This document shows, in pieces, positions 1-3,000 of a DNA stretch of 20,970 nucleotides (position 1 is the first letter of the stretch; each line of letters opens with the position of its first letter). The DNA is from Candidatus Diapherotrites archaeon CG10_big_fil_rev_8_21_14_0_10_31_34 (GTDB lineage: Archaea; Iainarchaeota; Iainarchaeia; Iainarchaeales; 1-14-0-10-31-34). The DNA is taken from the NCBI GenBank assembly GCA_002763225.1, contig PFAI01000002.1, positions 8,695 through 29,664 of the forward strand, read 5' to 3'. A program made the position numbers.

Positions 1-3000
1 TTTTTTTAGTTTTATTTTCTTGTTTTTAGCAAGAAAAGTTATTGCTTTTAGTTTAACTGCTTTTGAATTTTTTTTGTTTAATGCAGTAACCATTTTAATC
101 AAAGGAAAAACCTGAACAAAAAAATCTTTTCCTTTTTTGAATAAAAAATTTAAATCTTCTCCTAACCCTTCTTTTTCAGAGCAAAGATATAATATTGTTG
201 TTTTTCCTGAATCATTTTTCCCTGAAAACAATATTGCTTTGTTTTTGTCTATTATTGCAGATGAATGAATTATGTTTGCATTAAAATCGCTTAAATAAAT
301 TGAAAGGCATTTTGCTAGACTGAAAATAAACATCCCCCAAAAAAAGTTTTTGCTGGCCATTACCCTAAATTCTCCTTTTTTTTTGTTTAAGTCAAGTGTT
401 CCTGATAAAATCATTCCGTTTTTTCCTTTTTTCTGGCTGAAAACAAACACATTTTTTTTTATTTCTTTTATTTTTTCTTTTGACCTCCATCTGTCTTTCA
501 GCATAAATGCACTTAACTCAAAGTTTCCTTCCCTGAAATCATAATCTAATGTAAGGTCTGCTTTTTTTTTTGACTGGAATTCAGGAAAATACATGCTTAA
601 AGCTTTGCTTAGTTTTTTGTGATTTGATTTAATTAAAATGCTTTTTCCTGCAAACAAAAAGTTTGTTTTAAATTCTTTCATTAAATCATCCTGCACATAA
701 GTTAAGTTATTCTTTTCTAAATACGCTGTTAATTGTTTTCCATATTCCTGAAACAAATAAAACAAAAAAAATGACTTTAATTTTTTGCATTAAATTTTCA
801 GTAAAATAAAGTCTAACCCTCATTTTTTGAAGGTCAAAAAAAAACGGGTTTTTTGCAGGCATTTTTGTCAGGCTGGCTGTTTTTTTCCTTAAATAATCCA
901 TTTTGTTTTTGTTTGTTTTAATCCCTTTAAGTTCTTTTATTTCTGTTCCAAAAAACTCTTTTGTTAATTCATTAAAGTAAATCATTGGTTCTGTTATGTT
1001 GTATTTAATTGTTTTTTCTTTTAATTTTTTTAAGTCAGGTTTTTGTTTGAGCATGTTTTGAACATCAATTAATGCTTCAAATATTCCGTAAAATGCATGC
1101 TGGTAAACTGCACTTAAAACAGAAATAATTATTGAATCTTCTTTTCCTGGAATCCTGATTGAATTAATTTTTACGGAATCTGCCCAGAGCTCTTCATAGT
1201 TTATTCTGAAACAGTTAACAGGAAAAAAAAGTTTTTTATGAGGTTCTATTACAACCCTGATTTTTTCGTTTTTTTCCATTAAAGGAAAATGCTGTTGGTT
1301 TGAATAAAACCGGCCAAACAGTTTTTCTTTGAAAGGGATTTTTTTCCATGCATTAAATGCATAGCCCTTAAATCCTTTTTTTTTACAGCTTTCAAACGCT
1401 TTTTTGTATTCTTTTTCTTTTATCAGAAAATCAATATCGCTTGACTGCCTTGAAAAGCTTTCAGGGTAAAGCCAGTGGTTTAATGCAATTCCTTTAAATG
1501 CAATATATTCAATTTCTTTTCTTTCAAATTCCCTAAATAATCCTTTTGCTTCTTTTTCAAGAATCATGTTTTCTATTGTTATTTGCCTGTTTTTTTCCTT
1601 GAATTTATCCAAAGTTTTTTTTGGAACAATGCTTTTGTCAAATTTATCATAAATAAACTGAGATATTTTGTGATAAAAACATAAGTCAGTGAATTTATTC
1701 CAGTCAATGTTTTTGTATGAATTTTGTTTTGCTTTCCCTTTAATTAATTCAATTAACAGTTTTTCTTCTGGGTTCATTGAAACACTAATTTATTATATTT
1801 TGTTTCTATTTTAAATTAAACAGTAATTAATTAAGTGGTTGTGTAAGTGGTTTAATGAAAATTTTGTTTGTTTCCCCTCATTTTTTTCCTTTTATTGGAG
1901 GTGCATCAACCCTTATTCTAAGGATGTGCATTGAACTCAAAAAAAAAGGCCATGAAATAACTGTTTTTACTTCAACAAAAAATTCAAAAGATTTTAAGGG
2001 AATTAAAGTTTATTCTTTTCCTTCAATATTTACTTATTCTAACACTCCTTTTAATTTTTGGAAAAATAAGTTAAGCAAAGTAATTGAAAAAGAAAAACCT
2101 CAAATTGTTGTTGGTTCACTTTCAGTTCCTTTTATTGCTGATTCTGCTTCAAGAGCTGCAGAAAAGAAAGAAATTCCTTTTTTTCTTGTTTACCATAATG
2201 ATTTCCTTGCAAAAAACTTTTTTGAAAAACTATTCTTTAAATTTTATTCTTCTTTTTTTTTGAATAAAACTCTTGCTTTAACAACAAAAATTATTTCCAC
2301 TTCTGACTATTACTCAAAAAAATCATCAATACTAAATTCTTTGCAAAAAAAAGTTGAAGTTGTTTCTCCTTTTATTGATTTAAACGAATTTAATCTTTTA
2401 GAAAAATTCAATAAAAATTTTCCAGAAAAAAAAGTTGTTTTGTTTGTCGGAGCATTAAATAAAGGCCAAAATTATAAAGGGTTAAATTATTTAATCAAAG
2501 CAGTTTCTCTTTTAAAAGAAAAAATTCCTTTAATTAAATTAGTTGTAGTGGGGAAAGGCAATAACCTGAATTATTTCAAGAAACTTGCAGTAAAAGAAAA
2601 TATTCAGGGAAATGTTTTTTTTGCCGGAGAAGTTTCCCGACAAAAACTTTTATCTTTTTATTCTGAATGCAAAACACTTGTTCTTCCTTCTGTTAATAAC
2701 TCTGAAGGTTTTGGTTTGGTTTTATTGGAGGCAATGGCATTTTCTAAACCAGTTATCGGAAGCAATACAGGAGGCATTCCTGCAATAGTAAAACACGGTT
2801 TTAACGGCCTTTTAGTTGAACCAAAAAATGAAATAAATTTAATGGAATCAATTGAATTAATTTTAACTGATAAAAAGAAAGCAAAAGAACTTGGATTAAA
2901 TGCATTAAATACTGCTAAAAGTTTTTCTTCAGAGAAAGGCATTTCAAAATTAATTAAACTGTTTGAGGAATCATTAAATGAAAAAAAACAATAAAATTCT

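Follow-up and report, generated by a model that had tools for sequence, protein, structure and literature searches.

What does the gene set at the edge of this archaeal locus make, and by which chemistry? The window, the whole stretch of 20,970 nucleotides that was analysed (G000:C26:8695-29664, G000 being the genome of the window and contig position 8,695 being window position 1), opens inside a cassette that a genome-wide survey's note had described as an epipeptide-like RiPP cluster. Our analysis indicates that a small modified peptide is very probably the product of this conserved gene set of a tiny groundwater archaeon. We confirmed the genes as real and reproduced the family matches given in the note for the radical SAM (rSAM) enzyme, its orthologue in the related genome G013, the PqqD-like protein, the NTP_transf_5 protein and the Radical_SAM and Fer4_12 domains.

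Only two cassette genes, encoding an HprK-like kinase and the NTP_transf_5 protein, lie inside window positions 1-1777, both on the minus strand. The genes and borders of the cassette are as follows.

Contig, upstream of the window, minus strand: PqqD-like ORF (PqqD match)
Contig 7104-7208, upstream of the window, minus strand: 34-codon small ORF
Contig 7282-8313, upstream of the window, plus strand: radical SAM gene, 343 aa
Window 1..681, minus strand: putative HprK-like (PEPCK-fold) P-loop peptide kinase, first 227 codons, truncated by the window start
Window 707..1777, minus strand: NTP_transf_5 (PF14907) nucleotidyltransferase-fold protein of 356 aa, whose gene heads the minus-strand unit
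Window 1778..1854, no strand: divergent intergenic region of 77 bp between NTP_transf_5 (-) and GT4 (+), the outer border of the cassette on that side
Window 1855..2994, plus strand: GT4 glycosyltransferase (Glycos_transf_1, E 1.6e-45)

The kinase reading frame occupies window 1-765, with its likely start at 681; this start, at M29, was picked to agree with those of the orthologues. The rSAM gene had been described as followed by the PqqD, kinase and NTP_transf_5 genes. These are indeed its neighbours, but they lie on the opposite strand and are convergent with it, and the layout is not one operon: rSAM (+) is divergent from the small ORF and converges on the minus-strand unit NTP_transf_5 > kinase > PqqD, the cassette genes being split over three transcription units. 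The 3' ends of rSAM and the facing minus-strand unit abut or overlap in every locus. Runs of N interrupt the G000 PqqD, kinase and SpI-like genes, each separately.

The small ORF has the features of a RiPP precursor. It encodes 29-35 residues, is free of Cys and lies beside rSAM in all six loci that hold the intergenic region, where the earlier search had found it in three of six. The leader follows the pattern x-Y-[EK]-K-P-x-I-[KR]-[KV]-[LI]-[NS]-x-K in 6/6 loci. Its N-terminal 13-14 residues are the same in six genomes from three genera, and the C-terminal part, the core, diverges freely. Synonymous codon changes among the six genomes leave the leader's five invariant residues (Y, K, P, I, K) untouched, which argues that the small ORF is more than a chance reading frame. 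In G018 it is inverted and lies on the same strand as rSAM, 21 nt ahead of that gene, and thus still travels with it. This combination of a conserved leader with a variable, Cys-free core bears out the RiPP-type pathway of the survey's note.

Ser, Thr, Ala, Gly, Ile and Val abound in the cores, and Cys, Trp and Tyr do not occur in them; Phe is missing from two of the six. An alignment of the six precursors showed no conserved core position able to act as a fixed cross-link pair, and the cores hold neither a conserved C-terminal Ser nor a ring-forming Asp or Glu. Sactipeptide and ranthipeptide readings were ruled out, Cys occurring in 0/6 precursors. By eye, small residues 3-6 positions past the conserved Lys (A-N-A in G000) resemble a signal-peptidase-type cleavage site; this candidate is inconsistent across the six peptides and was discounted as evidence. 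At 22-40 nt upstream of the small ORFs there are A/T-rich, TATA-like elements; these were likewise discounted, since such strings are expected at 27-30% G+C.

A discrete leader-binding protein is encoded in the same cassette. The interrupted G000 PqqD protein matches PqqD with E 4.2e-5 and 24.2 bits (gathering score 23.4), and intact orthologues match at 6e-13 to 1.5e-10. For two orthologues of genus g1 the best NCBIfam names are lasso PqqD chaperones (5e-10 to 2e-6), and for the G018 protein the best NCBIfam match is ScmD. RREs of this kind are described as recognising the leader motif [Y/W]xxPx[L/V/I/F/A] (PMC13381572), which the archaeal Y-x-x-P-x-I fits. Structure prediction of PqqD together with the precursor gave a complex score of 0.51, the best control reaching 0.02; at least 83% of contacts agreed between runs, and the partner pLDDT was at least 54. 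Of 157 solved complexes, 116 reach the mark used for this score, as do 2 of 215 mismatched pairs; those that reach it with at most 0.60 comprise only 18 of the 157 solved complexes and both mismatches. Because solved RRE-leader complexes exist, the passing score may reflect structures that the predictor has already seen. The predicted complex lends weak support to leader binding.

Judged from its sequence, the rSAM enzyme is a true relative of EpeE/YydG. It matches TIGR04078 with E 2.7e-31 and 109.2 bits, residues 9-304 aligning to model positions 3-289 of 309, and the next-best NCBIfam family follows at E 3.6e-12; Pfam Radical_SAM and Fer4_12 are also matched. The G013 orthologue scores 139.5 bits (E 1.6e-40) and that of G018 145.4 bits, so that all three, at 109-145 bits, miss the TIGR04078 equivalog cut-off of 300 bits. 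A profile of the archaeal enzymes aligned over the full length with solved YydG (8ai1_A; E 7.3e-40, positions 11-306 to 30-317), the next structure being MoaA at E 1e-10. The CX3CX2C cysteines C17, C21 and C24 are invariant in 8/8 sequences, and all eight EpeE cysteines are kept and invariant (C17, C21, C24, C210, C227, C228, C300, C303). C210, C300 and C303 align with Cys in YydG, and the C227-C228 pair aligns with chain residues C247-C248, which are native C222-C223 after subtraction of a 25-residue tag. EpeE Cys223 is described as the H-atom donor (PMC5682303, PMC13012085). The archaeal rSAM keeps the equivalent of this donor, a conservation that would fit the same function and agrees with the YydG relationship proposed in the survey.

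The EpeE-like superfamily is large, with at least 776 cluster representatives at E<=1e-30; of 47 sampled, none reaches the equivalog cut-off. The CC pair is present in 133 of the 148 top representatives carrying the rSAM motif; being family-wide, it does not single out epimerases. EpeE is, to our knowledge, the only member of this superfamily with known chemistry. A search with the six-sequence rSAM alignment returned four close relatives and one Tissierella locus; homologous-protein searches gave 4 relatives of the rSAM and 8 of the kinase, too few for trees. In the loci of two genera, a B12-dependent rSAM gene is inserted.

The two cassette genes inside the window suggest phosphate chemistry. 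The motifs of their products lie at the following positions.

Window 148..162, minus strand: kinase G-E-D-L-N motif ([ED]-D in relatives); D185 invariant in 11/11 aligned homologues, preceding residue E or D
Window 199..222, minus strand: kinase Walker A loop GKNDSGKT; G168, K169 and T171 invariant
Window 256..267, minus strand: kinase H-S-S-A motif; H148 invariant in 11/11 aligned homologues
Window 1424..1441, minus strand: S-D-I-D-F-L of the NTP_transf_5 protein, the D-x-D metal-binding motif of the nucleotidyltransferase fold; D114 and D116 invariant in 8/8

The Walker A loop confirms the P-loop reported earlier. The label HPr-kinase-like stood in part: Pfam and NCBIfam HPr-kinase models gave no match to the G000 protein, but its orthologues weakly match HprK_rel_A/B and ScmC in NCBIfam (E 1e-9 to 1e-5), and the fold agrees with the label. 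An AF2 model (pLDDT 77.7) retrieved PEPCK (5.5e-7) and HPr kinase/phosphatase 1knx (2.7e-6), as well as 1ko7 and 1kkl, with Foldseek; as modelled, the kinase has a PEPCK/HprK fold. Against PDB sequences, the kinase-family profile returned generic P-loop matches only (best E 0.024) and no HPr kinase, and the HprK link is therefore taken from the fold search and NCBIfam. Comparison with a SpI-linked Bacillota kinase by hhalign gave 99% probability and E 4.7e-18 over 266 columns. H148 may represent the His in the His-Lys-Asp-Asp motif named for lasso kinases in PMC9266682, a correspondence that we infer rather than read from an alignment, and the G-E-D-L-N or [ED]-D motif is a candidate for its Asp-Asp.

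The NTP_transf_5 protein matches its Pfam family with E 1.5e-32 (protein 23-277, model 2-249 of 249) and has orthologues in 8 aligned loci. PsmN is described as inactive with D134A/D136A (PMC6993621), and the archaeal D114 and D116 would correspond to these residues. The same family occurs beside a lasso cluster in the Bacillota genome G301, where the genes are NTP_transf_5, Asn_synthase, Hpr_kinase_C, PqqD and Transglut_core3.

The survey's note had seen no protease in the cluster; for the relatives this is incorrect. Two genes from the precursor, G011, G013, G014, G015 and G018 encode a short signal-peptidase-I (SpI) paralogue of 137-176 aa that matches Peptidase_S24 at 3e-9 to 3e-8, above cut-off, and TIGR02228 at 44-47 bits, below the cut-off of 51.85. 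Ser30, His68 and Asp83 are invariant in these five relatives, and G000 retains the last 30-35 codons of the gene beside a run of N. A canonical SPase I of 267-284 aa is encoded elsewhere in the genome in all five genomes searched. The short paralogue is the presumed leader peptidase. It sits in a tight operon with genes for a lipoprotein, an AAA_18 kinase-like protein and a TRAP_beta-like secreted protein, and it could instead serve these neighbours. Between the precursor and the SpI-like gene lies a conserved 316-aa lipoprotein (model pLDDT 84.5); Foldseek against the PDB returned nothing at E<=0.001, the best match being LolA (1.0e-3, TM 0.21-0.31), and gave no sign of protease or transporter likeness.

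To place the cassette among known systems, we compared it with four families. The closest reference is the LPP pathway, lppA-K-B-S-D-N of Paenibacillus alginolyticus (Bacillota; Popov et al. 2026, PMC13381572). As described there, its SpI-like peptidase, RRE, HprK-like kinase and NTP transferase all have counterparts in the archaeal cassette; its precursors likewise combine a conserved N-terminus, with a leader opening with YxxPx[V/I], and a variable C-terminus, and its locus is likewise rich in glycosyltransferases. Kinase homologues occur in 38 of 401 Bacillota genomes, and SpI-linked Bacillota copies give the archaeal PqqD and kinase higher scores than lasso-cluster copies do. In G211, where the order is SpI-like, kinase, PqqD, MsbA-like ABC, SpI-like, kinase, SPASM rSAM and PqqD, both SpI-like copies are matched by the archaeal SpI-like protein. 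The archaeal system differs in its DPANN host, in its split over three transcription units and in its EpeE-like rSAM (with the B12-rSAM in two genera), the term 'radical SAM' being absent from the main text of PMC13381572. It also differs in its precursors, which are 29-35 aa long compared with the 35-200 aa described for LPPs; of the reported LPP leader motif YxxPxVLxHQxIxFETxxS, they share the Y-x-x-P-x-I part (6/6) but not the remainder VLxHQxIxFETxxS. An MsbA-like exporter is absent too: with a pattern that recovered Bacillota positive controls, neither the window nor any of 9 scanned loci of the archaeal family yielded an ABC ATPase, MsbA-like or otherwise.

The epipeptide system epeXEPAB (yydFGHIJ) of Bacillus subtilis, whose EpeE/YydG is represented by PDB 8AI1-8AI6 and TIGR04078, shares full-length homology of the rSAM, with CX3CX2C, the C-terminal cluster cysteines and the Cys223 equivalent kept, and the archaeal core is Cys-free with Ile and Val. 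It differs in that the archaeal rSAM scores below the equivalog cut-off, that an EpeP-type protease and an EpeAB transporter are missing at the archaeal loci, that the archaeal leader is of lasso/LPP type, and that the archaeal cassette has a discrete RRE, a kinase and an NTP transferase, which the account consulted does not name among the epe genes. Epipeptide-like is thus not the best label: the epipeptide protease and ABC genes are lacking, and the other four parts and the YxxPxI leader match the LPP family.

The phosphorylated lasso module (PadeK/ThcoK/PsmK, PsmN, B1 RRE; PMC9266682, PMC6993621) is described with a similar HprK-family kinase, a PF14907-type NTP transferase with DxD and a PqqD RRE acting on the linear precursor. 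The archaeal cluster differs in having no macrolactam synthetase beside it. A lasso peptide reading was ruled out: the B2 protease (PF13471) has no match in the G000 genome, which is 81% complete, and the sole Asn_synthase (PF00733) match lies on another contig, C24. SynChlorMet, a computational family (ScmC, ScmD, ScmE, ScmF; TIGR04248-04251), likewise combines a peptide-type rSAM with a P-loop, ScmC-like protein and one resembling PqqD. ScmC is matched by the kinases of the archaeal loci with E values from 1e-9 to 2e-3, and ScmD by their PqqD proteins at 7e-8 to 5e-6; all these scores fall far short of the NCBIfam cut-offs (17.7-37.8 versus 125 bits for ScmC, 26.7-32.7 versus 100 for ScmD). 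The archaeal rSAM is EpeE-like, not ScmE/F-like, ScmE being matched only by the G018 rSAM, at 30.5 bits.

These comparisons lead us to favour, with moderate confidence, the reading that the cassette is an archaeal variant of an LPP-type kinase/RRE/signal-peptidase RiPP pathway that has acquired an EpeE/YydG-like rSAM. By analogy, the best reading of the product is a linear peptide with D-residues and phosphate. The 29-35 aa precursor would be made with its conserved leader and variable core, and the discrete PqqD-type RRE would bind the Y-x-x-P-x-I leader and hand the peptide to the enzymes. The EpeE-like rSAM would take a C-alpha hydrogen in the core, and the conserved Cys (EpeE Cys223) would return H from the opposite face; this epimerisation would yield D-residues, most likely Ile or Val. 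The kinase would add one or more phosphates to core Ser/Thr, which the NTP_transf_5 protein may decorate with a hexose or nucleotide. In two genera the B12-dependent rSAM would add an extra step, probably C-methylation, and the short signal-peptidase-I paralogue would cut off the leader. Phosphate or further decoration, as suggested in the survey, is a reasonable proposal because of the HprK fold and because homologous kinase and NTP-transferase pairs are described as phosphorylating and then hexosylating peptides (PMC9266682, PMC6993621, PMC13381572). LppK is reported to polyphosphorylate Ser3 of its core, and LppS to need the RRE for the leader cut (PMC13381572); PsmN is reported to add hexose to the phosphate (PMC6993621), and the activity of LppN was not detected in its own study, as described in PMC13381572.

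The combination joins an EpeE-type signature enzyme with four of five LPP core genes in a minimal-genome archaeon, and both families are described as restricted to Bacillota (LPPs in PMC13381572, epipeptides in PMC13012085). The survey's wording, first of Archaea, goes too far as stated, archaeal RiPP clusters including those of DPANN having already been surveyed according to PMC12144867. Its suggestion of a candidate antimicrobial or host-directed signal draws no support from the observations made here. If the proposed chemistry holds, a single short scaffold could carry both radical epimerisation and peptide polyphosphorylation, archaea too would have a dedicated paralogue of the 'archaeal-type' signal peptidase that serves as leader peptidase in RiPP pathways, and the six natural cores would inform the substrate rules of an EpeE-like enzyme dependent on a discrete RRE. 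The small, tractable gene set would also suit probing the purpose of LPP-type peptides, a question left by PMC13381572 as described there.

How firmly do the genes belong together? At E<=1e-10 the rSAM was found in 9 of the 196 genomes of the order, where six had been counted before; seven belong to the window's own family, one of them as a contig-end fragment, and the other two are weak partial matches in another family. Both rSAM and kinase are present in seven genomes of the family, and G016 has neither; in G012, of the same family, a contig end interrupts the locus at the kinase. All archaeal loci come from one family of close kin with the whole neighbourhood syntenic, so adjacency is weak evidence of linkage. 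This, the rSAM being transcribed separately from the kinase unit and towards it, and the opposite, convergent transcription units would suit two unrelated neighbours, the small ORF and rSAM forming one peptide system and PqqD/kinase/NTP_transf_5, GT4 and membrane proteins serving another substrate. That substrate might be a surface glycoprotein or a peptide encoded elsewhere, with the SpI-like protein acting on adjacent secreted proteins. In G166 a homologous kinase occurs with a different SPASM rSAM, indicating that the kinase module swaps partners, and the SpI-like gene has 4-nt overlaps with genes of housekeeping appearance. However, a discrete RRE needs a leader peptide, and the sole conserved small ORF in the loci carries Y-x-x-P-x-I; rSAM and kinase are jointly present or jointly absent within the family; and the adjacency of rSAM and cassette outlasts both the B12-rSAM insertion and the small-ORF inversion in other genera. 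With the weak support of the predicted PqqD-precursor complex added, we regard two separate systems as improbable. Still more so, to the point of being very hard to credit, is a small ORF that is not a gene, with the rSAM as an orphan enzyme whose substrate is a protein or no peptide at all. Open frames of 34 codons are not uncommon at ~27-30% G+C (about 6% per frame, estimated from base composition), the ORF has no family matches in Pfam or NCBIfam, and the 22 sequencing runs listed as containing this DNA include none of RNA; against this stand the N-terminal residues shared by six genomes of three genera, with synonymous changes at every invariant residue, and its place beside rSAM even where the orientation is flipped.

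More serious, though we hold it to be unlikely, is a pathway with the same substrate in which the rSAM does not epimerise but installs an ether or C-C cross-link, dehydrogenates or hydroxylates the Cys-free core. The scores, 109 against 300 bits for the G000 enzyme, fall far under the YydG equivalog cut-off, in a superfamily with a single chemically known member, and the Thr/Ser-rich cores could be ether donors; Thr ether links are made by rSAM enzymes. The full-length match to EpeE with all eight cysteines, including the one aligned with the H-donor, speaks for epimerisation, and cores without Cys, Trp or Tyr (and Phe in two of six) lack most known rSAM cross-link partners as well as any conserved position for a fixed pair.

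On the favoured LPP-type reading with an epimerising rSAM, the product may act outside the cell. The cassette lies between secreted-protein genes and a glycosylation locus, and no exporter is encoded near it, from which surface or host use could be proposed. That a ~1 Mb DPANN archaeon makes, through this hybrid pathway, a linear peptide with D-amino acids and phosphate (perhaps phospho-sugar) for use at its surface or towards its host is a tentative proposal, less likely than not. Surroundings rich in glycosyltransferase genes are described for LPP clusters (PMC13381572), and GT4 orthologues, 44-69% identical, adjoin NTP_transf_5 in G011, G013, G014, G015 and G017, with the same layout in G012. 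As a conserved neighbour in every related locus, the GT4 enzyme may be a member of the pathway.

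The gene cluster is genuine and very probably encodes a RiPP pathway. Its most fitting class is an archaeal, radical SAM-bearing variant of the cassette behind Linear Polyphosphorylated Peptides (LPPs; defined by Popov et al. 2026, PMC13381572). The genome-wide survey's note had called it epipeptide-like; the RiPP reading stands, while the epipeptide class gives way to the LPP-type cassette, which fits better. We infer each of the steps such a pathway would take (epimerisation, phosphorylation, decoration and leader removal) from homologues. Window positions 1-1777 hold only the right-hand third of the full finding, with two genes, both on the minus strand. 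The genes in the source genome (G000, contig C26; locus L001) are:

contig 6099-7049 (L001 1100-2050), minus strand: conserved lipoprotein, 303-336 aa, with a lipobox-like ..GC; left of the window, and between the precursor and the signal-peptidase-I-like gene in six loci
contig 7104-7208, minus strand: small ORF of 34 codons, the putative precursor
contig 7282-8313, plus strand: radical SAM gene, 343 aa
contig 8294-8497, minus strand: PqqD-like ORF, a putative discrete RRE
contig 8294-8313 (L001 3295-3314): overlapping ends of the radical SAM and PqqD-like genes; same junction in the related loci L013, L014, L015 and L017
window 1-765, minus strand: ORF of the P-loop, HprK-like protein (the kinase), off the window edge; likely start 681, which fits the orthologue starts; contig end 9459 or 9375
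window 707-1777 (contig 9401-10471), minus strand: NTP_transf_5 gene, 356 aa

The radical SAM gene faces a minus-strand unit that runs from NTP_transf_5 through the P-loop gene to the PqqD-like gene, and the 3' ends abut or overlap in every related locus. Given this convergence, and the divergence of the small ORF from the radical SAM gene in G000, the cluster is not one operon. The survey's gene list is correct, but its 'followed by' passes over the change of strand. At the radical SAM/PqqD junction the gene ends lie -20 to +21 nt apart in every locus, which leaves no space in which a terminator could separate the units; the two stop codons overlap in G000 and in G018, another genome of the order. 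Runs of N break the PqqD-like, P-loop and signal-peptidase-I-like genes of G000, and intact orthologues were used for these proteins.

To find the precursor, all ORFs of at least 15 codons were listed from the spacer that separates the lipoprotein and radical SAM genes, in the six loci holding it. Each locus contains one ORF of 29-35 aa, with a common N-terminus and an unrelated C-terminus. The small ORF with a shared leader therefore exists as the survey described, but in six of six loci rather than in three of six genomes:

G000: leader MNYEKPKIKVLNIK, core IANAAASISTKIVASSSTST
G011: leader MEYKKPLIRKINIK, core SVGASLNFTVTQSAGIVQT
G013: leader MTYEKPAIKKLNIK, core TASSGGTTFLIEVAPSTTSA
G015: leader MKYEKPEIKKLNTK, core IVFTPDDSMFISASPQTGFTL
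G014: leader MENYKKPAIKKLNLK, core MGFSGTKPISPVGTAS
G018: leader MKKKKYKKPSIKKLSIK, core AARGATGIATNV

Five leader residues do not vary across the six sequences (Y, K, P, I and the final K). For each of them the six genomes use between them at least two synonymous codons, which indicates selection on the protein. Cys, Trp and Tyr are absent from all six cores. The G018 precursor lies on the radical SAM strand, 21 nt upstream of that gene, while the other five are divergent. G014 has, next to the intact precursor, a degenerate further copy that looks like a decayed duplicate, its leader broken by a stop codon in frame:

L016 (G014 contig C26) 8712-8831 and 9038-10947: second precursor-like stretch (..KKLNLRIGLSVKK..) and two tandem EpeE-like radical SAM genes

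The likeness of the radical SAM protein to the peptide epimerase YydG (EpeE), proposed in the survey, was reproduced. It matches TIGR04078 at E 2.7e-31 and 109.2 bits (cut-off 300), with the next family at 3.6e-12, and the G013 and G018 orthologues reach 1.6e-40 and 2.5e-42. Pfam returns Radical_SAM and Fer4_12, with SPASM below threshold. A profile built from eight members of the family aligns over positions 11-306 with the YydG/EpeE structures 8ai1 to 8ai6 (E 7e-40); the next-best structure is MoaA (1e-10). Eight cysteines are invariant: C17, C21 and C24 (CX3CX2C), C210, C227, C228, C300 and C303. All five C-terminal ones align with cysteines of YydG, the CC pair lying opposite YydG chain residues 247-248, or native 222-223 after a 25-residue tag offset. 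Cys223 of EpeE is described as supplying the H atom with which epimerisation is completed (PMC5682303, PMC13012085). With this equivalent and the other cysteines kept, the enzyme has what EpeE needs.

Two points call for caution. The superfamily around the enzyme is very large and uncharacterised (776 cluster representatives at E<=1e-30); 44 of 47 sampled representatives match TIGR04078 alone, and none of the 47 reaches its cut-off. The CC pair occurs in 133 of the 148 best representatives carrying the radical SAM motif, so it does not set epimerases apart from other possible chemistries. A Tissierella locus uses the same enzyme family in another kind of RiPP-like cluster, and neither a PqqD-like protein nor the kinase is present in it:

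L025 (Tissierella creatinini contig) 3473-9130: SPASM radical SAM, B12-radical SAM and three tandem EpeE-like radical SAM proteins (320-333 aa)

In Pfam, the broken PqqD-like copy of G000 scores 24.2 bits against PqqD (threshold 23.4), and intact orthologues 6e-13 to 1.5e-10. Complex prediction from PqqD and precursor alignments gave a score of 0.51 (best control, 0.02), with at least 83% contact agreement between runs and a partner pLDDT of at least 54. Of 157 solved complexes, 116 reached the mark used, as did 2 of 215 mismatched pairs; at that mark, scores of 0.60 or less came from just 18 of the 157 solved complexes but from both mismatched pairs. The prediction hints that the PqqD-like protein may bind the precursor, and the pass may reflect likeness only, because RRE-leader complexes have already been solved.

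HPr-kinase models of Pfam and NCBIfam gave no match to the G000 P-loop protein. Its orthologues repeatedly match the NCBIfam HprK-related kinases A and B and ScmC (E 1e-9 to 1e-5, far under the cut-offs), and a PDB sequence search with the kinase returned nothing useful. Foldseek matched an AlphaFold model (pLDDT 77.7, built on an alignment of 11 rows) to ATP-dependent PEP carboxykinases (5.5e-7) and to the HPr kinase/phosphatases 1knx (2.7e-6), 1ko7, 1kkl and 3tqf; the predicted fold is that of PEPCK/HprK. H148, K169, T171 and D185 are invariant, with E or D preceding D185. Compared by description, these residues resemble a His-Lys-Asp-Asp motif that lasso-peptide kinases are reported to carry (PMC9266682). 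Precomputed annotation places Pfam accession PF27840 on all eight kinase homologues (P0005-P0012), so the family may already bear a curated name. The NTP_transf_5 protein covers PF14907 at full length (1.5e-32), with an invariant D-x-D (D114, D116). In pseudomycoidin biosynthesis, PsmN, called an uncharacterised NTP transferase, is reported as required for hexose addition to phosphorylated Ser, and its DxD double mutant as inactive (PMC6993621).

The survey's statement that the cluster holds no obvious protease is wrong for the relatives. A 164-aa ORF adjoining the lipoprotein gene in G018 matches the archaeal signal peptidase I family TIGR02228 (1.5e-11, 44.4 bits; cut-off 51.85) and SipW (1.2e-5), and homologues of 137-176 aa occupy the same place in G011, G013 and G015. 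These signal-peptidase-I-like (SpI-like) proteins match Peptidase_S24 over threshold and keep Ser30, His68 and Asp83. In G000 only the last 30-35 codons are visible, directly next to a 12-N run; the first few codons were read by eye across that run. A canonical signal peptidase I (267-284 aa) is encoded elsewhere in five of the five genomes searched, which makes the SpI-like gene a dedicated paralogue. It sits in a tight minus-strand unit of precursor, lipoprotein, SpI-like, AAA_18 kinase-like and TRAP_beta-like secreted protein genes, the last four of which abut or overlap by 4 nt. The AF2 model of the lipoprotein (pLDDT 84.5) is mostly beta with a helical insert and matched no PDB fold at E<=0.001. 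The SpI-like and AAA_18 genes are separate, with a 4-nt overlap, except in G014:

L016 (G014) 6797-7687, minus strand: SpI-like peptidase fused in frame to the next AAA_18 adenylate-kinase-like protein, one 296-aa ORF

Profile searches covered the 196 genomes of the order. The radical SAM protein was found at E<=1e-10 in nine, seven of them from the window's own family (G000, G011, G013, G014, G015, G018 and, as a contig-end fragment, G017); G014 holds two tandem copies and one fragment. The other two, from another family, are weak partial matches (E 4e-13 and 6.8e-12). The kinase profile matches ten genomes: the same seven, G012 (interrupted by the contig end), G166 (E 3e-27) and G054 (weak, 4.6e-7). 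G016 has neither. Within the window's family the two proteins are both present or both absent, a co-occurrence that is weak evidence of linkage because these are closely related genomes that share synteny across the whole neighbourhood. In the distant archaeal relative G166, the kinase is paired with a SPASM radical SAM protein, and an NTP_transf_5 homologue and ABC genes lie close by. In G018 and G017, two other genera, a further enzyme between kinase and NTP_transf_5 is probably an added C-methyltransferase step:

L017 (G018) 10347-11726 and L018 (G017) 1644-2987, minus strand: B12-binding radical SAM, 447-459 aa (B12-binding 5e-13 to 9e-13; Radical_SAM ~1e-18)

As described for LPPs, the conserved core includes an SpI-like leader peptidase (LppS), a discrete RRE (LppB), the HprK-like kinase LppK, which polyphosphorylates core Ser3, an uncharacterised NTP transferase (LppN, no activity seen) and an MsbA-like exporter, within glycosyltransferase-rich loci. 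The precursor N-terminus is conserved as YxxPxVLxHQxIxFETxxS, like the lasso-RRE motif [Y/W]xxPx[L/V/I/F/A] (PMC13381572). The archaeal cluster holds four of the five core genes and the opening Y-x-x-P-x-I of the motif, and a glycosyltransferase (GT4) gene and two large membrane proteins adjoin it; unlike LPP clusters, it lacks the exporter and the remainder of the leader motif. A pattern for ABC ATPases that picked up the Bacillota controls had no match in the nine archaeal family loci scanned or in the window.

Homology also ties the archaeal cassette directly to bacterial ones. Of 401 Bacillota genomes sampled, 38 hold homologues picked up by the archaeal kinase profile. One of these genomes, G211, reads SpI-like, kinase, PqqD, MsbA-like ABC, SpI-like, kinase, SPASM radical SAM, PqqD, so bacteria too have cassettes of this type with a radical SAM enzyme, there an ordinary SPASM protein. 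The first G211 kinase was aligned by hhalign with the archaeal family at 99% probability (E 4.7e-18, 266 columns). In another Bacillota genome, G301, the same block adjoins a complete paeninodin-type lasso cluster (NTP_transf_5, Asn_synthase, Hpr_kinase_C, PqqD, Transglut_core3). In a tiny database where bit scores alone are meaningful, archaeal PqqD scores 54 bits against SpI-linked copies versus 32 against lasso copies, and the kinase 54-66 versus 35-40; the archaeal SpI-like protein scores 44 and 39 bits against the two G211 copies. What sets the window's archaeal family apart is the EpeE-like radical SAM enzyme together with Cys-free cores. Epipeptides and LPPs are both described as Bacillota-only in the sources consulted (PMC13012085, PMC13381572), and the main text of the LPP paper, which calls LPPs Bacillota-restricted, does not contain the term 'radical SAM' (PMC13381572). 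No archaeal example of either class was found in the literature searched, but archaea have been surveyed for RiPPs (PMC12144867).

To the right of the cluster, the adjoining membrane proteins are paralogues:

window 2978-4582 and 4608-6257, plus strand: two polytopic membrane proteins, ~540 aa

Their first 40 residues are nearly identical, they have a C-terminal domain in common, and the second (4608-6257) has a weak DUF2206 match (3.5e-7). Relatives stand after the GT4 gene in G012 and G017, and the pair is probably part of a surface-glycosylation locus. Window positions 6643-20572 look ordinary, encoding an aCPSF1/FttA-type beta-CASP nuclease, a proteasome subunit, a SpoIIM-like membrane protein, an FKBP, a Hel308-like helicase and an 826-aa beta-helix (NosD-like) protein.
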